From positions 1 through 35,163 of the forward strand of contig CAXHAT010000076.1 in the NCBI GenBank assembly GCA_964014485.1: a stretch of 35,163 nt of DNA, read 5' to 3'. The stretch is from an uncultured Deferribacteres bacterium. GTDB lineage: Bacteria; Zhuqueibacterota; Zhuqueibacteria; Zhuqueibacterales; Geothermadaptataceae. A program made the translations under genes and the position numbers. The notes beneath the pieces were generated by a model. The model ran no database searches. It saw nothing but the letters and a program-made list of their open reading frames with translations, and had not been told where the DNA came from. Every line of letters begins with the position of its first letter. The stretch's first letter is position 1. Shown here in pieces: positions 1,436 to 25,484 of the stretch.

Positions 1436-2620
1436 GTGTTGACGAGACAGGGAATACGGACGCTGCTAAAGGATGTCGAAGCTGACAATGTGGAGCGGAC
1501 CGTTTCCACTACCGATACAAAAAAAATTTGCGAAGCCATTTGCGCTTTTTCGAACGACCTTCCAGGGAACGGGAAGCCCGGCTACCTTTTTGTGGGCGCC
1601 GAAGATAAAACCGGCAAAATCACGGGCATTGAGGTCACGGATCAATTGCTGCAAAACCTGGCGAGCCATCGTGATTCAGGGCAGATTGTGCCCCTGCCTT
1701 CTCTCACCGTTCAAAAATTTTCATTCACGGAAGGCGAGGTCGCCGTCGTCGAAGTGCGGCCGTCGGACATGCCGCCGGTGCGTTATCGAGGCAGGGTCTG
1801 GATTCGCGTCGGCCCTCGACGAGCCATTGCAAGCGAACAGGAAGAACGCATTCTCACGGAACGGCGCGTACAAAACGCCAAATCTTTTGATTTGCAGCCA
1901 TGCTTCGACTGCGGTCGAGATCAAGTCGTGCATGCTCTTTTCGAAGATTATCGCAATGCCGCTGTTGCACCAGAAATTATTGAGGCGAATGATCGCGAGG
2001 CCTTTCAACAAATGGCGGCGCTGGGTTTGTGGGACATGCGACATGATTGCGCGACTTATGCGGGCGTTTTGCTTTGTTCCGAATCGCCGCAGAATTGGCT
2101 GCCGGGCGCCTACATTCAATTCGTCCGCTTTGAAGGAACCGGTTTGGAATCGGATGTTTTGGATGAACGCACGTTCACGGGCGATTTGCTCACGATGCTG
2201 CGTGAGTTGGACGCTTTTCTTAAAACGCTGTTTCCGTCGCGTCCCGTCCCTGCCTCCGCGCTCAGAGAAAAGCAGGTGACGCCATACCCGCAATGGGCGA
2301 TTCGCGAACTGCTCATGAACGCGGTCATGCACCGTGATTATCAGTCTAACGCGCCGATTCGTTTTTATTGGTTTTCTGATCACATCGAGATTCAAAATCC
2401 TGGCGGACTTTATGGGGCGGCTGCGAATTTCCCCAACCAGAACGACTATCGTAATCCCAAAATCGCCGAGGCGATGAAAAATCTGGCTTTCGTCAATCGC
2501 TTCGGGCGCGGCGTTGCAACAGCGCAGAGCGTGCTGCAAAAAAACGGCAATCCGCCGGCCGAATTCACCATTGATAACCCCAATTACTTCCTTGCGGTTA
2601 TCCCGGAGGCCAAGCAGTGA
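1436..2620 (+). CDS. Schlafen/AlbA_2 domain + HATPase_c_4-like domain protein
   Basis: N-terminal EADNVERT...ICAFSN...GYLFVG..D AlbA_2 pattern. C-terminal YP..AIRELLMNAVMHRDY...IEIQNPGGL...RNPKIA...GRG pattern. GTG start with upstream AAAGGA. No C-terminal wHTH seen. Confidence 0.85.
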   Translation: MLTRQGIRTLLKDVEADNVERTVSTTDTKKICEAICAFSNDLPGNGKPGYLFVGAEDKTGKITGIEVTDQLLQNLASHRDSGQIVPLPSLTVQKFSFTEGEVAVVEVRPSDMPPVRYRGRVWIRVGPRRAIASEQEERILTERRVQNAKSFDLQPCFDCGRDQVVHALFEDYRNAAVAPEIIEANDREAFQQMAALGLWDMRHDCATYAGVLLCSESPQNWLPGAYIQFVRFEGTGLESDVLDERTFTGDLLTMLRELDAFLKTLFPSRPVPASALREKQVTPYPQWAIRELLMNAVMHRDYQSNAPIRFYWFSDHIEIQNPGGLYGAAANFPNQNDYRNPKIAEAMKNLAFVNRFGRGVATAQSVLQKNGNPPAEFTIDNPNYFLAVIPEAKQ

Positions 2621-3609
2621 AAACAATCGCATTTTTCAACAACAAGGGCGGCGTCGGCACAACGACGCTGGTCTATCATTTGGCCTGGATGTTGGCGGAG
2701 TTGGAGCATAAAGTGCTCGCCGCCGATCTCGATCCGCAAGCTAATCTGACAAGTATGTTTTTGGCGGACGAACGTCTGGAGGAGATTTGGGCTGATGACG
2801 CCGACCGTCTGAGCTTTTTGCCGTCCGTCACGCCGATTTTGGAAGGCGTCGGAGACGTTTCCCCGGCGCATACGGAAAAGATTCTGCCGAATTTGCACCT
2901 GATTCCCGGCGATCTCGGTTTATCCATTTTCGAAGATAAGCTCTCGGACAGTTGGCCTCGGTGCTTGGATAATGATCCGGCTGCGTTTCGCGTTATGTCC
3001 GCCTTTTATCGCATTATTCTCGAGGCGGCGGAAAAGCTTGACGCCAATGTTGTGCTCATTGACGTCGGTCCAAATCTTAGCGTTTTGAATCGATCTGTAC
3101 TGATTTCGGCGAATTATTTTGTTACGCCCCTTGCGCCCGATCTCTATTCTTTGCAAGGTCTGAAAAACCTGGGGCCGACTTTGAAACAATGGCGCTCCGG
3201 TTGGAAGAAACGGCTTGGGCAGAAACCAGAAAACTTACAGATTCCGCTTCCGGAAGGCGGCATGTCCCCCGCGGGTTATATCATCATGCAGCATGTCGAA
3301 CGCAAAAGCCGCCCCGTTCTTTCTTATCGTAAATGGGTGGACAGAATACCCGGGACATACCGGAAATACGTTCTTGAACAGAGTGAGAAATTGGATTTTA
3401 AAGAAGATGATCCGAACAGGATCGGGTTGGTGCGCCATTATCAGAGCCTTATGCCTATGGCGCAGGAAGCGAGAAAGCCAATTTTTATGCTCAAACCGGC
3501 GGACGGCGCAATAGGCGCGCACGCACAAAGCGTGAGAAAGTGCTATATAGAATTTCAGCGAATGGCGGAATCTTTGGTGGAGAGAACGTCTCATAAGTCT
3601 GAGCTATAA
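2617..3609 (+). CDS. ParA/MinD (AAA_31/CbiA) family ATPase with an altered Walker A motif
   Basis: NNKGGVGTTT, DLDPQANLT, LIDVGPNL. GTGA 4-bp overlap with the upstream gene. Confidence 0.88.
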   Translation: MKTIAFFNNKGGVGTTTLVYHLAWMLAELEHKVLAADLDPQANLTSMFLADERLEEIWADDADRLSFLPSVTPILEGVGDVSPAHTEKILPNLHLIPGDLGLSIFEDKLSDSWPRCLDNDPAAFRVMSAFYRIILEAAEKLDANVVLIDVGPNLSVLNRSVLISANYFVTPLAPDLYSLQGLKNLGPTLKQWRSGWKKRLGQKPENLQIPLPEGGMSPAGYIIMQHVERKSRPVLSYRKWVDRIPGTYRKYVLEQSEKLDFKEDDPNRIGLVRHYQSLMPMAQEARKPIFMLKPADGAIGAHAQSVRKCYIEFQRMAESLVERTSHKSEL

Positions 3610-3668
3610 AGACATTTCCACAAATCTGAAACTTGCCATTTTTGCGTGAGAGAGAGCGGGAAAAGCGA

Positions 3669-3697
3669 TTGCCTTTCAAACGGGTTATCGCTATGTT
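3669..3697 (+). promoter_or_regulatory. Putative sigma70-type promoter of moxR (duplicated near 1329-1354)
   Basis: TTGCCT, 17 bp spacer, TATGTT. The related left copy also has TTGCCT followed by a TAT-containing -10-like segment. Confidence 0.4.
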
Positions 3698-3863
3698 TTC
3701 GCCTTCTCGTGAAACGCGAAATGCGCCCAGATTGTCCATTCAGGAGGAATCTATTTTGCATTACCTACGGGCAAAATAGATTCCTCCTGAATGACAGGTT
3801 GGAGCGTGTCTACCGTTCGAAAAATTTCAGTTCACAATCACAGCGAACCAACCGGAATCGTTC

Positions 3864-4859
3864 ATGGAATCGAAAAAGGGCGACGTTGCCGCCGTCGAAG
3901 AGTTAAACGAAGCGTATCAAAAAATCAAGGACGAAATCGCGAAGGTCATCATCGGGCAGGAAACGATCATCAACCAAATGTTGATCTCGCTGCTCGCGCG
4001 CGGCCACTGTTTGCTGGTCGGCGTCCCAGGTCTGGCGAAAACCTTGATTATCAGCACGTTGGCGCGCGTGCTCGATCTGAAATTCAGCCGCATTCAATTC
4101 ACGCCGGATTTGATGCCTTCGGATATTACCGGTACGGAAATTATCGAAGAGGATCGAACCGTTGGCGGGAAAGCTTTCAAATTCGTCAAAGGGCCGGTGT
4201 TCGCGAACATGGTTTTGGCCGATGAGATCAACCGTACGCCGCCGAAAACGCAAGCCGCTCTTTTGCAAGCCATGCAAGAGCACGAGGTGACCGCCGCCGG
4301 GACAACCTATAAATTGGAAGAGCCTTTTTTCGTACTTGCGACGCAAAATCCCATCGAACAGGAAGGCACCTACCCGTTGCCGGAAGCGCAGCTTGACCGT
4401 TTCATGTTCAATCTCTGGGTCGATTATCCGACTTACGAAGAAGAAAAAACGATCGTCAAATCGACGACCGGTGCATACACCGCTGAATTGCAAAAGGTTC
4501 TTGAGCCGCAACAAATCATCGATTTGCAAGACCTCGTCCGCCGCGTTCCGGTCGCGGACAATATTGTTGATTTTGCGGTAAAATTGGTTCGCCAAAGCCG
4601 CCCAAACTCTGAGGACGCACCGAAATTCGTGAAAGACATGACGCATTGGGGCGCCGGGCCGCGGGCGTCGCAATTTCTCGTTTTGGGCGCAAAAACACGC
4701 GCCGTTCTGGACGGCCGCCCGACGCCGGACATCGACGACGTTCGCGAAGTCGCCGTGCCCGTGCTGCGCCATCGGGTCGTAACGAATTTTAATGCTGAAG
4801 CGGAAGGCGTTTCTTCGGTGGATGTGATTAAGCGTTTGTTGGAAGAGACGAAAATTTAA
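3864..4859 (+). CDS. moxR: MoxR family AAA+ ATPase
   Basis: GVPGLAKT, RIQFTPDLMPSD, DEINR, ATQNPIEQEGTYPLPEAQLDRF. Confidence 0.95.
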   Translation: MESKKGDVAAVEELNEAYQKIKDEIAKVIIGQETIINQMLISLLARGHCLLVGVPGLAKTLIISTLARVLDLKFSRIQFTPDLMPSDITGTEIIEEDRTVGGKAFKFVKGPVFANMVLADEINRTPPKTQAALLQAMQEHEVTAAGTTYKLEEPFFVLATQNPIEQEGTYPLPEAQLDRFMFNLWVDYPTYEEEKTIVKSTTGAYTAELQKVLEPQQIIDLQDLVRRVPVADNIVDFAVKLVRQSRPNSEDAPKFVKDMTHWGAGPRASQFLVLGAKTRAVLDGRPTPDIDDVREVAVPVLRHRVVTNFNAEAEGVSSVDVIKRLLEETKI

Positions 4860-4897: not shown

Positions 4898-5152
4898 ATG
4901 ACTGACCGACTTGTCATTGAATATCCTGCAACTTTGCCCGACATCTTGCAAGAATCTCGCGAGCAATTCGAACAAGAAGCCAGAATGGCGATGGCGGTAA
5001 AGCTTTTTGAAATGAAGAGGCTGTCTTCAGGAATGGCGGCGAAGCTTGCCGGGATCGACCGAGTTTCGTTTCTTCTCCGTTTGCATCAATTTGGCGTTGC
5101 TATGATTGATTTGGACGAAGACGAAATCTCGCAGGATATTCAGAATGTCTGA
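4898..5152 (+). CDS. UPF0175 family protein (predicted HTH antitoxin)
   Basis: 84 aa with the AVKLFEMKRLSSGMAAKLAGIDRVSFL..L...GV signature. Confidence 0.85.
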   Translation: MTDRLVIEYPATLPDILQESREQFEQEARMAMAVKLFEMKRLSSGMAAKLAGIDRVSFLLRLHQFGVAMIDLDEDEISQDIQNV

Positions 5153-5177
5153 GTAAAAAGCTTACAGATTTAGCCTT

Positions 5178-5370
5178 AACCTGGATAATTCACAGATAAT
5201 TCACAGATAATTCACAGATAATTCACAGATAATTCACAAACGTCATTCCCGCGCAGGCGGGAATCCAGGAAAATCAACGACTTAGGTGCAATTCTGGATA
5301 CCCGCCTGCGCGGGTATGACATTTGGGGGGATTTGAGCGCAAGGTAACAGTTTTGTGAATTATCCAGGTT
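5178..5370. mobile_element. MITE-like element with terminal inverted repeats enclosing a palindromic REP/dRS3-like doublet
   Basis: Left end aacctggataattcaca (5178-5194); right end tttgtgaattatccaggtt (5352-5370). Internal arms at 5242-5268 and 5294-5320. Confidence 0.8.
5184..5238. repeat. Perfect tandem repeat (GATAATTCACA)x5
   Basis: Five exact 11-bp units, derived from the left TIR. Confidence 0.97.
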
Positions 5371-5399
5371 GGATAAAGCCGGAGAAAAATAGAACACAT

Positions 5400-6320
5400 A
5401 TGAACTCCCAATCATCCCGCCAGGACGTTTACAAGAAATATCTCAATCCCACGGTTGTTTCCCGGCTTTCGAGCATGGAGTTGCGCGCCAAATTGGTGGT
5501 GGAAGGCTTCATGGCGGGCTTGCACAAAAGCCCGTACCACGGCTTTTCCGTCGAATTTGCCGAGCACCGCCAGTACATGCCCGGCGATGATTTGAAGCAC
5601 GTCGATTGGAAAGTCTACGGCAAGACCGATCGCTACTACGTCAAGCAATTTGAAGAAGAGACCAATCTAAAAGCGCACATTTTGCTGGATTGCTCAGGCT
5701 CGATGGCCTACGGCAGCGGCGAAGTCAGCAAATTTCAATACGCCTCCTATCTCGCTTCAGCGATTATTTATTTACTGGTAAAGCAGCGCGACGCCGCCGG
5801 TTTGGTGACCTTCGACGAGAATATTCAACGCTACCTGCCGCCGCGCTCCGTCGCGACCTATCTGCCGGTTTTGCTTTCAGAGCTTGAAAATACGGAAACG
5901 TCAAAATCGACCGACATTGCCGCGACTTTGCACGAGATCGCCGAGCGCATCAAAAGGCGCGGACTGGTGTTGGTTTTTTCGGATTTTTTCGATCAGAACA
6001 TCGACGGCGTAATTCAGGGGTTGAAGCATTTCCGCCATCGCAACCACGAAGTGCTGGTTTTTCAGGTTTTGGATGTGATGGAATCGACTTTCGCCTTTAA
6101 GGACGACACGATTTTCGAGGATTTGGAAACGCAGGAAAAAATGAGCACGCAGCCCGCACAGATTCGCGCCGAGTACCGCAAGCTCATGCAGCAATTCATC
6201 CGCAGAATTCAGAAATCCTGTCGCGAAAACAATATCGATCACGTGCTTCTGACCACGGAAACGCCCTATGATCTGGCCTTGTCGCAATTCTTACAAAAGC
6301 GGAAACGCGTCGGCGGATAG
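5400..6320 (+). CDS. DUF58 domain protein (MoxR-associated, vWA-like)
   Basis: G.H.S...G.SVEFAEHRQYMPGDDLKHVDWK, LDCSGSM. ATG 5400 chosen because the upstream extension runs into the MITE. Confidence 0.93.
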   Translation: MNSQSSRQDVYKKYLNPTVVSRLSSMELRAKLVVEGFMAGLHKSPYHGFSVEFAEHRQYMPGDDLKHVDWKVYGKTDRYYVKQFEEETNLKAHILLDCSGSMAYGSGEVSKFQYASYLASAIIYLLVKQRDAAGLVTFDENIQRYLPPRSVATYLPVLLSELENTETSKSTDIAATLHEIAERIKRRGLVLVFSDFFDQNIDGVIQGLKHFRHRNHEVLVFQVLDVMESTFAFKDDTIFEDLETQEKMSTQPAQIRAEYRKLMQQFIRRIQKSCRENNIDHVLLTTETPYDLALSQFLQKRKRVGG

Positions 6321-7917: not shown

Positions 7918-8040
7918 CACGCCGATTTTTTTTCACCCCTGCGCTTGCCTGCCTGAGATAAAATCTTACAGACGAAATACAAGCATTTTTGCCAAAACAA
8001 AGACCTGCGCCAGTTGCGCGCGGATATGGAGAAAATAGAA

Positions 8041-8991
8041 ATGAGCCTTAAAAAAATCGGCATTCTTCGCGGCATGGAAACGACCTTTCCAGACGCGTTG
8101 ATACCTTATATAAATGAAAAATACGGCGATTCAGGCGTGCATGCCGAGTTCGTCGAACTTGACGCCGTTTCGCAAGACGGAACGCCGGAATACGCGGTTG
8201 TTCTGGACAGAATTTCGCATGAAGTGCCGTTCTACAGATCATGGTTAAAATGGACGGCCCTGAAAGGAACCTACGTCGTCAACAATCCCTTTTGGTGGAG
8301 CGCGGACGATAAATTTATCGACAACGTCATCGCGCAACAAGCCGGAGTCGCCGTACCGAAAACAGTTATTTTGCCGCACAAAAAGCACCCGGAAAACACG
8401 GAAGATTCCAGCTTTCGCAATTTAAAATTCCCGATAAATTGGGACGCGGTGGTTGAATACATCGGATTTCCAGCTTTCATGAAACCGCACGACGGCGGCG
8501 GTTGGCGCGGCGTGACCAAAGTGAGCAACCGCGACGAACTCTTCGCGGCTTACGACGATTCCGGGACCGACTGCATGATGCTGCAGGAAGGCATTGAATT
8601 CGAATCCTATTATCGCTGTTACGGCGTGGGACGCAAACACGTTCACATTATGAAGTACAATCCAGTCGCCGAACCGCACCTGAGGTATCACGACGTGCCG
8701 GAAGGCCCGATTCCGGAAGACATTTTCAACACTGTGCATTCGGGCGTCTTGGCGCTTTGCAAAGCGCTTGGTTACGATCTCAACACGGTGGAATTCGCCG
8801 TTCGCGACGGCGTGCCGTATGCAATCGATTTCATGAACCCTGCGCCGGACGCGGACTTCAATTCGGTCGGGCAAGAGAATTTTGAGTGGATCGTCAATCA
8901 CATGGCGGCGTTCCTGGTAGAAAGAGCGACCGAAAAAAGGCGCAAAAAACAATTCACGGCAAACGGCTTTTTAGACGCATATGCGAAGTAA
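8041..8991 (+). CDS. RimK/glutathione-synthetase-like ATP-grasp ligase
   Basis: VVNNPFWWSADDK, VAVPKT, FPAFMKPHDGGGWRGV, MLQEGI, EFAVRDGVPYAIDFMNP. ATG 8041 follows GGAG. Confidence 0.85.
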   Translation: MSLKKIGILRGMETTFPDALIPYINEKYGDSGVHAEFVELDAVSQDGTPEYAVVLDRISHEVPFYRSWLKWTALKGTYVVNNPFWWSADDKFIDNVIAQQAGVAVPKTVILPHKKHPENTEDSSFRNLKFPINWDAVVEYIGFPAFMKPHDGGGWRGVTKVSNRDELFAAYDDSGTDCMMLQEGIEFESYYRCYGVGRKHVHIMKYNPVAEPHLRYHDVPEGPIPEDIFNTVHSGVLALCKALGYDLNTVEFAVRDGVPYAIDFMNPAPDADFNSVGQENFEWIVNHMAAFLVERATEKRRKKQFTANGFLDAYAK

Positions 8992-10336
8992 GCTGAACGA
9001 GGCGATCGCCTGGTACCATTCGATTGTTCAGGCCGACAAGAAAGCCGCGGACGAGCAATTCGAGTGGTTGCAGCAAGAACAGATTGCGCGGAAAACGGAT
9101 TTCGGCGGAAGGCCCCTAGCCAACACTTTGCGTCCGGCGTTCCTTTCCGAAGGCATGCACACGCAAGTGCAAGACGCGGTCTACACCATTCGTCAAGCCG
9201 TTTTGAAATTGGCGGCGTCCTACTTCAGCGACTTCAAATATTTGCAGGAGTTGGGGTTGAATGAGGAGGAAGTTGAGCTCGTTTCCATCCCAACGAATGT
9301 GATACGCCTCTCCGCCACGGCGCGCATGGATTCGTTCATGACGGCGGATTCATTCAAATTTGTCGAGATAAATGCCGAGTCTCCGGCCGGGCCCGCCTAT
9401 TCGCACCACCTGGCTCAAATTTATCGTGAATTGCCAGTTTTTCAAGAGTTTGAAAAACGTTTCCCGGTTCGATTCGTCTCCCCCTTGGAGCACTTGGTCG
9501 CCGGGCTTTTGCGAACTTATCACGAAGAATTTGACGGCGTTTCCGCCAAGCCGTCGTTTGCGATTGTCGACCATCTCAACGTTCCAACTTTCAGCGAATT
9601 TGTCCTGACAAAAGAATATCTCGAAAAATTTGGCTTCTCCTGCGAAATCTGTGACCCGCGAGAACTGGAGTGCAAGGACGGTTGGATTTACGCCAACGGA
9701 CAAAAAATAGACATTCTCTACCGACGTTTGCTGATCTCGGAATTTCTTCCGATGAAAGACGACTGCCAGGCTTATTTTGACGGCTATCGCGCACAGAAGA
9801 CATGTTACCTCAACTCCTTCCGCTCGATGCTCGTCCACAAAAAGGCCATTTTCGCTTTTCTGACGGATGAAAAACACAACCAGATTTTAAACACGAATGA
9901 ATTAGAAGCGATCTATAATCACATTCCCTGGACGCGAATTTTAAAAGAACAAAACACGGCCTTTCGCGGTTTAAACATTGATCTTTTGGAATTCATCCGG
10001 GCGAACCGCCGCTACTTTGTCATTAAACCGAACGACGAATACGGCGGGAAAGACGTTTGTCTCGGCTTTACCGCTTCCCAATCGGAATGGGAAAAAGCTA
10101 TGGAAAAGGGCGTTGGTCACGGTCACATCGTACAGGAAATCGTTGATATTCACAAAGAACCGTTTATCATGCATCTGGACGGCGCATGGCAAGAAGTTCC
10201 GACGGTTCTTGACCTTGACCCATACTTGAACGGCCCGTTGATGGGCGGATGTTTGGCCCGTATTTCCGCCACGAATTTAGCAAACGTGACCGCAGGCGGC
10301 GGAACCGTCCCACAGTTTATCTTGCGTTATTTATGA
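8981..10336 (+). CDS. Circularly permuted ATP-grasp ligase (CP_ATPgrasp/glutathionylspermidine-synthase-like)
   Basis: RMDSF...FVEINAESPAG, IDILYRR, VIKPNDEYGGKDV, IVQE, ANVTAGGG. 11-bp overlap with the upstream gene. Confidence 0.82.
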   Translation: MRSKLNEAIAWYHSIVQADKKAADEQFEWLQQEQIARKTDFGGRPLANTLRPAFLSEGMHTQVQDAVYTIRQAVLKLAASYFSDFKYLQELGLNEEEVELVSIPTNVIRLSATARMDSFMTADSFKFVEINAESPAGPAYSHHLAQIYRELPVFQEFEKRFPVRFVSPLEHLVAGLLRTYHEEFDGVSAKPSFAIVDHLNVPTFSEFVLTKEYLEKFGFSCEICDPRELECKDGWIYANGQKIDILYRRLLISEFLPMKDDCQAYFDGYRAQKTCYLNSFRSMLVHKKAIFAFLTDEKHNQILNTNELEAIYNHIPWTRILKEQNTAFRGLNIDLLEFIRANRRYFVIKPNDEYGGKDVCLGFTASQSEWEKAMEKGVGHGHIVQEIVDIHKEPFIMHLDGAWQEVPTVLDLDPYLNGPLMGGCLARISATNLANVTAGGGTVPQFILRYL

Positions 10337-11193
10337 TGACCGACCCAAAACACACTGTCAAAGCAGCGGTTCTTGACCTTTACAACAACGAACCGAATGA
10401 AGGCATGCGCTGCATCCGCGACATTCTGCATCGCGCCAACGGCCGCGTCTGCGACGTGCCGCTCGTTTTTGACGTTTTTGACGTGCGCCACAAAGGGGAA
10501 ATTCCGGATTTATCCTACGATATTTACATCTCCTCCGGCGGCCCGGGCAGCCCGTTTGAAGGAGAAGGCCAGGCTTGGGATCGCGACTATTTCGATTGGC
10601 TGGACAAGCTCTGGCGGCATAACGAGACCGAATATTCCGGCAAAAAATTTCTCTGCGCCATCTGCCATTCTTTCGAATTAATGACGCGCTTTTTTGAATT
10701 CGCGGAGATTACGCCGCGCAAGTCGAAATCTTTCGGCATTATGCCCGTTCACAAAACGCCCGCCGGGAAGCACGAAATTATTTTCAGCGATTTAAATAAC
10801 CCGTTCTTTGCGGCGGATATCCGCGAATATCAAGTCGTTCAGCCGAAAAAATCCCGCATTCATGAATTGGGCGCGGAAATTATCGCTCTGGAAAAAATCC
10901 GACCGCACATCGATCTTGAGCGCGCCGTTATGGGCGTTCGCATGTCGCCGGAAATCGTTGGCGTGCAATTTCACCCGGAGGCCGACCCCGAAGCGATGGC
11001 CTATCATTTTCAAAACCCCAAAAACAAAAGCGCCATTATCCACGAGCACGGAGAGGAAAAATACAACATTATCATGCATCGCCTTGCCGACCCCAACTAT
11101 CTCACCCCGACGCAAGAAACCGTCATCCCCAATTTTCTAACCAACGCTATTGAAAACCTTCGTCCTGAATTAGTTTTTGACATGGCGATTTAG
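10333..11193 (+). CDS. Class I glutamine amidotransferase-like protein (GMP-synthase-like GATase or gamma-glutamyl hydrolase)
   Basis: SSGGPG oxyanion loop, AICHS nucleophile Cys, QFHPEAD His-Glu. ATGA overlap at 10333-10336. Confidence 0.85.
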   Translation: MMTDPKHTVKAAVLDLYNNEPNEGMRCIRDILHRANGRVCDVPLVFDVFDVRHKGEIPDLSYDIYISSGGPGSPFEGEGQAWDRDYFDWLDKLWRHNETEYSGKKFLCAICHSFELMTRFFEFAEITPRKSKSFGIMPVHKTPAGKHEIIFSDLNNPFFAADIREYQVVQPKKSRIHELGAEIIALEKIRPHIDLERAVMGVRMSPEIVGVQFHPEADPEAMAYHFQNPKNKSAIIHEHGEEKYNIIMHRLADPNYLTPTQETVIPNFLTNAIENLRPELVFDMAI

Positions 11194-24811: not shown

Positions 24812-25417
24812 CTACATCTCAGGGTCATCCCACCCTTTTCCATAATCCAGTAAAGGATAATCGTCCCAGAGCATGAGCGCCTCGCGTTTTCCAAATTTTT
24901 CCAAAAAGGAATTCGCGCTAGAAAATGGCCAATCCTGCCATTTTTTGACATAACGATGATGTACCGGATTGTGATGAATGTAGTTTAAGGTCACGTAATA
25001 ATGCCGGTCATTGCGAATACTACGATCCATCGAATTGTGCCAGACTTTTCTTCCTTCTGTATCATCTTCTTTGTTCCACGAACGTGACATCCGGCCATGA
25101 AACTCGCCTAATTTCTCTGAAAATCCATCAAAAGACGCAACTTTCGAGAGAACGTGATAGTGATTTGACAGGACGCACCAAGCTGTAACACGAGCATTTA
25201 AGGTTTCAAAAGCTTCCAGTAAATCTACACAAAATTTTTCCATTCTATCCTCTGATTTACCGACAATGTGTCTGTGCTCGTAACAGGCGGCACTGATGAA
25301 GTAAAAATCAGATTCTCCTTTCCTGTGCGGCGGACTGTGCCAGGGACGACTGGCGAGCTTTCGTTCCTTCAAAATTTTTTCACGTTCTGCATGCGACATT
25401 TTTCGCCAATCGTACAT
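24812..25417 (-). CDS. REP-associated tyrosine transposase (RAYT, Y1 HUH superfamily)
   Basis: YFIS, AWCVLSNHYH (HUH), W....DR.IR, catalytic Tyr in LNYIHHNPV, W.FSS. Flanked by REPs. ATG 25417; the ORF track starts at 25432. Confidence 0.9.
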   Translation of the reverse strand: MYDWRKMSHAEREKILKERKLASRPWHSPPHRKGESDFYFISAACYEHRHIVGKSEDRMEKFCVDLLEAFETLNARVTAWCVLSNHYHVLSKVASFDGFSEKLGEFHGRMSRSWNKEDDTEGRKVWHNSMDRSIRNDRHYYVTLNYIHHNPVHHRYVKKWQDWPFSSANSFLEKFGKREALMLWDDYPLLDYGKGWDDPEM

Positions 25418-25484
25418 TGCCTTGCGCCCCAAAAAGTTCAGCTTTAAAGTGATTAATTCTTGAACAGAGCGTCATCTAAAAGGC

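Follow-up and report, generated by a model that had tools for sequence, protein, structure and literature searches.

A conserved Schlafen-GHKL and ParA-like ATPase gene pair inserted between rlmN and moxR: a candidate ParA-effector defence cassette, probably impaired in this copy

The window analysed here is a stretch of 35,163 nucleotides (contig CAXHAT010000076.1, assembly GCA_964014485.1) from an uncultured Deferribacteres bacterium, and it carries a two-gene cassette on the plus strand. The first gene, ORF1 (1436-2620, GTG start), encodes a 394-aa Schlafen (AlbA_2)-GHKL ATPase protein of the architecture known as 'Schlatpase', with PF04326 followed by PF13749; Pfam placed SLFN_AlbA_2 at residues 16-128 (E 1.4e-15) and HATPase_c_4 at residues 306-386 (E 2e-12). 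The second, ORF2 (2617-3609, plus strand, GTG start), encodes a 330-aa ParA/Soj-like ATPase with ConB1 sequence marks, in which AAA_31 spans residues 1-198 (E 3e-29). The stop of ORF1 and the start of ORF2 are joined in a GTGA overlap on the plus strand (2617-2620), and the pair lies between divergent genes that Pfam recognised as RlmN (minus strand) and MoxR AAA_3 (plus strand, 3864-4859), an arrangement that the preliminary description had read correctly from the sequence. It had also reported a missing parB partner, and none is present in the window; the two ParB_N matches of this genome that exceed the cut-off lie on other contigs (C81 and C59), both of which also hold ParA matches, and a housekeeping parAB is present elsewhere in the same genome. 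The cassette does not stand out as GC-deviant (0.535 and 0.506, against 0.514-0.538), its GC3 being slightly lower (0.57-0.58 vs 0.59-0.67), and a promoter scan returned two sites against 2.4 expected, nothing usable. Outside the cassette, a REP-like hairpin with 23-base perfect arms (3737-3793) has dozens of related copies in the genome.

To define how tightly the two genes are coupled, we compared loci retrieved independently with each protein. Among 80 GTDB loci picked by ParA, which are the best 80 of at least 593 ParA relatives (50-69% identity, 20 phylum-level groups), the Schlafen gene lies directly upstream in all 80; conversely, when the Schlafen gene was used for retrieval, each of the 23 metagenome loci obtained had ParA directly downstream. 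A survey of 167 genomes of the phylum, for which 30 loci were fetched, recovered nine near-full-length clade members that were all paired (the window's own included) and one more that ends at a contig edge, whereas none of 20 distant Schlafen-GHKL loci (23-35% identity, a few of them near contig ends) was paired with ParA. The two families do co-occur, as the preliminary description had proposed to check. The opposing outcome that it had named, a pair that is core in all relatives, was also considered: the ParA clade is patchy, being present in 6 of 40 relatives, with the Schlafen gene directly upstream in all six. The overlap measures 4 bases in 61 of the 80 loci and 1 base in nine, and no third gene recurs beside the pair in these 80 loci, the next neighbour family reaching 6/80. 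The cassette is real and strongly conserved, and its tight coupling is limited to the close clade. Pairwise distances of the two proteins are correlated (Mantel rho 0.555; best of 999 permutations 0.114), a result for which shared descent alone suffices. Searches for close matches of the clade found none on 72,556 plasmids (best ParA match 34%) and none in 50,697 phage records (best ParA match 30.5%).

Natural fusions point in the same direction. We recovered 27 long proteins bearing this ParA, 16 of which also match ORF1, and nine of them join the two proteins cleanly and in frame through a linker (P0128, P0281, P0283, P0287, P0288, P0290, P0293, P0294 and P0295), P0128 being found on 7 contigs from four sources. 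Since clean fusions occur in both Schlafen clades described below, fusion arose at least twice. Seven candidates (P0277, P0282, P0285, P0296, P0298, P0299 and P0300) were rejected owing to garbled or truncated stretches resembling frameshifts, and P0248 was set aside for a stretch of the same kind. Complex prediction from alignments of the two proteins scored 0.00 in two runs with unfolded controls, a result that counts neither for nor against binding. Beyond the clade, seven loci of distant ParA relatives (25-34% identity) contained no Schlatpase: three had a SIR2 partner and one a HEPN partner, and the remaining three, on phages and a plasmid, had no such effector gene adjoining. The SIR2 and HEPN partners match the effector list of a computational preprint (10.64898/2026.10.19.760177).

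The cassette is an insertion between rlmN and moxR in this genome; in the family relatives G002 and G005 the two genes are directly adjacent, with about 450 and 390 bases between them. Other genes occupy the interval in G003 and G006; in G006 a separate copy of the cassette follows glgB at another place in the genome. In a further relative (G001:C2, L181:1571-2803), a lone 411-codon frame of CAP12/Pycsar-type TIR character lies between rlmN and moxR on the moxR strand, and this occupancy of the same site suggests that it may be a defence slot. The preliminary description also held that duplicated host sequence brackets the cassette, and the comparison bears this out (local score 68, where 60 shuffles reached at most 28). 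What lies to the left is a reduced version of the right flank, in which 33 bases of intergenic DNA and 44 from the 5' end of moxR are represented: on the plus strand, the decayed copy at 1322-1354 corresponds to the intergenic stretch 3662-3694 (26/33, E 1e-4), and that at 1363-1406, from which ORF1 begins 29 bases on, corresponds to 3900-3943 within the intact moxR coding sequence (40/44, E 5e-12). Flank repeats above shuffled expectation were detected at 8 of 74 testable GTDB loci as opposed to 0 of 74 mismatched controls, and a score of at least 60 was reached at 5 of these 74 loci but by none of 400 gene pairs taken from the window's genome. One of 22 further loci showed a strong repeat. 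At four loci (L030, L035, L086 and L098) the repeats are duplicated host gene ends of 83-185 bases; those at L069, L072, L078 and L097 are short or intergenic and were left uncounted as gene scars. Judged from these sequences, the cassette may have entered by single crossover, by way of a gene end that it had captured. On the far side of moxR, before the next gene (5355-6320), the stretch 4898-5370 contains a UPF0175 gene, along with an 11-base tandem repeat (5184-5238), a hairpin of 32 bases (5237-5325) and an inverted repeat of 17 bases (5178-5194 / 5354-5370). As moxR and the gene at 5355-6320 are adjacent in G002 and G005, the stretch between them represents a second insertion.

For the wider genomic context, the nearest ORF on each side was taken with our own ORF picker in 70 of the 80 loci (125 proteins). 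A defence-type nearest neighbour was present in 15 of the 70, a raw count under our own classification, and these neighbours comprise DUF1156/DUF499/SNF2 genes of Hma-like loci, restriction-modification enzymes, AbiEi, AAA_21, GmrSD, HipA, WYL and Uma2. The other 55 loci have no clear defence neighbour; five are doubtful, two adjoin a transposase or integrase, and the rest lie mostly among core genes such as gyrA/serC, aspS, recA and groEL. In L024, L032, L055, L036 and L047 the cassette is lodged tightly within core operons, following gyrA in L024 and L032 and separating two aminomutase subunit genes in L055.

The AF2 model of ORF1 (pLDDT 93) matches DIP2311 (3LMM, E 3.4e-21), followed by human Schlafens and GHKL kinases, and ends in a beta strand at residues 384-390. 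It lacks a C-terminal wHTH, in agreement with the preliminary description; taking that absence as an argument for regulation by the partner is weak, because same-length unpaired proteins exist and the commonest architecture of all in an earlier survey is Schlafen-HisKinase lacking an HTH (34.0%, vs 19.2% with HTH; PMC13056530). The EADNVER motif that it singled out is present at residues 15-21 and supplies both Schlafen acids, E15 and E20. It overlooked, here and clade-wide, that Thr22 replaces the lysine of the E-x4-(E/D)-x-K triad of active Schlafen tRNases, a triad that is incomplete in ORF1. In the GHKL domain, the catalytic Glu (E291) and the Mg-binding Asn (N295) are retained. All 75 intact relatives keep E15 and E20, and all 75 likewise keep N295.

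Comparison of paired, non-fusion relatives (n=98) separates them into two catalytic configurations: 60 combine Thr or Ser at position 22 with Glu291 (T/E, to which the window belongs), 37 combine Lys22 with Gln291 (K/Q), one has Lys and Glu, and none lacks both. By contrast, both residues are present in every one of the 17 unpaired Schlatpases that are complete. We considered whether this pattern reflects repeated co-variation and rejected the idea, as each configuration is a single branch (FastTree supports 0.9 and 0.999). The T/E clade, with Thr or Ser at the Schlafen Lys position in 61 sequences, has a basic residue at position 30 in 61/61, compared with 43% of K/Q and 0/17 unpaired proteins, and from the alignment this residue may compensate for the absent Lys; mean identity of the Schlafen domain is 0.562 in T/E vs 0.553 in K/Q. 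In the Cash study, K24A abolished cleavage by CbCash (PMC13462974), and the putative T/E nuclease may accordingly be weak or dead. For the other clade, the corresponding RzAgo mutant E314A stopped hydrolysis but kept ATP binding and oligomers (10.64898/2026.05.29.728809), and by this analogy K/Q proteins likely bind ATP without turnover.

The nearest solved relative of ORF2, by both sequence and fold, is the uncharacterised DIP2308 (3PG5, E 5.6e-47, vs 8.8e-18 for Soj), and ORF2 falls below the NCBIfam partition cut-offs. Our literature search found no paper naming DIP2308. DIP2308 and DIP2311, the top structural hits for ORF2 and ORF1 respectively, lie three locus numbers apart in one genome. 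ConB1/PriB1 marks are present in the form of Walker A V13, the leading N9 and Q41 two residues after DxD, and are widespread in the relatives (Val 79/80, Asn 77/80, Gln 80/80). Basic residues occur at position 229 (R/K in 76/80) and position 276 (R in 60/80, Gln in ORF2), which we take as possible counterparts of the Soj DNA-binding arginines.

The Walker A motif of this copy reads KGGVGTTT: the nucleotide-binding Lys is replaced (K15T), and the intact KGGxGK[ST] pattern of the family is absent here. The position is encoded by ACA (2659-2661, plus strand), compared with AAA or AAG in five close relatives; KGGVGKTT is found in 109 of the 119 closest homologues and the Lys in 75 of the 80 loci. 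ORF2 additionally carries G155S and A156V, at columns conserved in 80/80 and 78/80. An assembly slip was considered and rejected, given that a Logan contig over 2563-4000 agrees (though it may derive from the same sample) and the ParA gene bears further private changes. Private changes number 12 in ORF2 as against 1-4 in five close sisters, and three in the Schlafen gene as against 2-12. In relative-rate tests against the five sisters, this ParA showed more unique changes than each of them in 10 of 10 comparisons, with p under 0.05 in six (the comparisons being non-independent), and the Schlafen gene did not. In ParA/MinD proteins, loss of the Walker A Lys blocks ATP binding. K15T together with the accelerated evolution of ParA indicates that selection on this ParA is probably relaxed and this copy of the cassette impaired. 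Across the clade, the Lys has been lost in 5 of the 80 loci as well as in the window, beside an intact Schlafen gene, and in a quick ParA tree the nearest neighbour is intact each time. As a group, the degenerate ParAs are not significantly more eroded than others (p 0.23), and the losses seen in metagenome-assembled genomes may include errors. Such repeated loss favours ParA as an activator over an ATP-dependent antitoxin, without proving it.

The preliminary description did not recognise the pair as a named system, and this no longer holds: a computational preprint (Li, Burroughs, Aravind 2026; 10.64898/2026.10.19.760177) already lists the pairing as ParA-effector subtype (iii), in the ConB1 clade, and states that the Schlafen-HisKinase subtype is enriched in multicellular taxa. 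PADLOC and NCBIfam gave the pair no system name, and a PADLOC pAgo model matches ORF1 residues 17-353 (E 6.9e-26). Our locus resembles the ParA-effector subtype in coupling a ParA gene to a HisKinase/GHKL and Schlafen gene, in the Walker A Val, the leading Asn and DxDxQ, and in the sirtuin and HEPN sister subtypes among its distant relatives; it differs in lacking the Walker A Lys. The preprint text at hand makes no mention, for this subtype, of fusions, T/E and K/Q clades, Walker A losses or flank duplications, and the available 5,025 characters of its supplement contain no Schlafen match.

Among the other systems compared, SLFN-pAgo RzAgo (10.64898/2026.05.29.728809) shares the Schlafen domain and the PF13749 GHKL domain, E291/N295 corresponding by spacing to E314/N318. 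In that study, its Schlafen-GHKL module forms a tetramer on ATP and cleaves tRNA, and no conserved partner gene was seen for SLFN-pAgos. ORF1 differs in having no Argonaute core (394 aa, ending after GHKL), a separate ParA instead, and Thr where RzAgo has the lysine of E(x)4(D/E)xK. The Schlafen proteins pSlfn5 and pSlfn7 (PMC13056530) and Cash (PMC13462974) share a Schlafen domain with two catalytic acids, and the model for them is tRNA cleavage and abortive infection; unlike our pair, each is encoded by one gene, is controlled by a fused sensor or by cA4, and has a full E-D/E-K triad. The predicted dyad of HEPN (MAE_18760) and ParA/Soj (Anantharaman et al. 2013, PMC3710099) likewise couples an RNase effector to a ParA/Soj ATPase, the effector being HEPN rather than Schlafen and its ParA having been proposed as an antitoxin; the HEPN-linked ParA recovered here (L008) is only 27-30% identical. 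GiPD474 of Gifsy-1 (PMC12724215) is an AAA_31 ParA/Soj-like protein with shown anti-phage activity, which works alone and is prophage-borne. ParABS ATPases (Soj/ParA) share the fold and motifs, whereas ORF2 has no adjacent parB and about 75 extra residues. Our literature search, with subscription papers largely outside its scope, found no experimental test of any such pair.

Our preferred reading, which we hold tentatively, is a horizontally spread ParA-effector (Schlafen-histidine-kinase) cassette that would likely act in abortive-infection defence, the present copy being likely impaired. ATP-bound ParA would sense invading DNA, then bind and switch on its Schlafen-GHKL partner, by activation and not inhibition; oligomerisation through the GHKL domain would bring the Schlafen domains together as a cleft that cuts tRNA, as in RzAgo, and tRNA cleavage, again by that analogy, would lead to abortive infection and phage defence. 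The sensor/effector idea of the preliminary description survives in this form, favoured by the fixed but patchy unit, its insertion and the natural fusions, and the claim that the pair was unrecognised falls away. Patchy presence, SIR2 and HEPN partners among distant ParAs, the 15 of 70 loci with defence neighbours and the TIR gene in G001 argue for defence, as do tRNA cutting by the RzAgo Schlafen-GHKL module and the phage block by GiPD474 alone. Against it stand the 55 of 70 loci without a clear defence neighbour and the E. coli tests, for which Schlafen-HisKinase fusions were among the architectures chosen and only DUF262 and Ig-like fusions defended (constructs unspecified in the accessible text of PMC13056530; one of its supplements has no match for HisKinase constructs). 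The non-defence explanation, a module that serves in stress, in quality control of RNA or in the positioning of DNA, or else a selfish passenger without an anti-phage role, draws on those same 55 loci, on the lack of close plasmid or phage matches and on the lack of a PADLOC model covering the pair. We regard it as highly improbable in view of the patchy presence and varied insertion sites, the embedding in Hma/BREX-related and restriction-modification loci, the exchangeable SIR2 and HEPN partners and the housekeeping parAB elsewhere in the genome.

The direction of control is more closely contested. ParA might instead restrain a Schlafen toxin and itself form the first line by coating invader DNA, the nuclease being freed when ParA is overcome. 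This is the model of the preprint (10.64898/2026.10.19.760177), where ParA is the first-line inhibitor of invader DNA and the effector is released later, and it follows the toxin-antitoxin logic of 2013 for HEPN and ParA/Soj (PMC3710099). The stop/start overlap fits fixed stoichiometry, no near-full-length clade member without ParA was found (in the best 80 of at least 593 GTDB relatives, the metagenome loci and the phylum loci), and GiPD474 defends alone (PMC12724215). An ATP-dependent antitoxin should not tolerate the recurrent P-loop-dead ParAs beside intact Schlafen genes, although a ParA devoid of nucleotide could act as an inhibitor permanently and would then also be tolerated; fusions in both clades would hinder the freeing of a toxin, and the toxin-first gene order is fixed. 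We therefore rate restraint as possible but the less likely alternative to activation. A different concern is that the T/E-clade Schlafen may cut no RNA, and would bind nucleic acid or scaffold ParA, with ParA polymerisation on invader DNA as the effector. The triad Lys is Thr/Ser in 60/98 paired proteins and kept in 17/17 complete unpaired ones, K24A kills CbCash (PMC13462974), and the preprint (10.64898/2026.10.19.760177) argues that ParA is often the primary effector. Set against this, E15 and E20 are kept in 75/75, conservation of the Schlafen domain is no lower in T/E (0.562) than in K/Q (0.553), the invariant basic position 30 might stand in for the Lys, and erosion in this copy affects ParA, not Schlafen, all of which makes a non-cutting Schlafen distinctly unlikely in our judgement. 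A bolder reading, which we hold to be rather doubtful, is that coupling to ParA rewired the Schlatpase, each clade dropping one catalytic residue (Lys to Thr, or Glu to Gln): ParA would have taken over the ATP switch in one and completed or replaced the nuclease step in the other, yielding a two-NTPase immune switch with two wirings that spreads into core genes by single crossover and leaves a duplicated gene-end scar.

The pairing itself is already predicted in 10.64898/2026.10.19.760177; new here are the nine in-frame fusions, the two catalytic clades, the repeated Walker A Lys losses and the host-gene duplications at several loci. Among the Schlafens of prokaryotes, the Schlafen-GHKL type is the most frequent (58.6% of 103,533; 10.64898/2026.05.29.728809). 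Its single member with demonstrated function depends on an Argonaute sensor, and the clade described here names a fixed partner; it also supplies single-chain fusions and cultured hosts, and its natural variants (T/E, K/Q and Walker A-dead) could separate activator from antitoxin models. For such tests, the window's copy is of little use other than as a naturally occurring P-loop mutant.

Several further observations were made in passing. Elsewhere in the window, a 206-aa ORF (24812-25432, minus strand) resembles, by eye, a REP-associated tyrosine transposase, and three overlapping ORFs (8014-11193, plus strand) appear by eye to encode two ATP-grasp ligases and a glutamine amidotransferase. 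This ParA clade is also fused to a RES domain (P0188, 545 aa) and to a HerA/DUF87 ATPase (P0286, 758 aa). Ten further ParA fusions of 676-678 aa (P0275, P0276, P0278-P0280, P0284, P0289, P0291, P0292 and P0297), one of them named Candidatus Palauibacter, have a C-terminal region without a Pfam match in which a PD-(D/E)xK-like motif can be discerned by eye, and five of the ten do not match the Walker A pattern. Two distant ParAs (25-30% identity) occur in settings of the kind reported for GiPD474 (PMC12724215): one follows cI and a DUF3024 gene in the immunity region of Salmonella phage ST160 (L155:2495-3568), and the other lies where a Pf1 prophage ends (L154:2573-3526).
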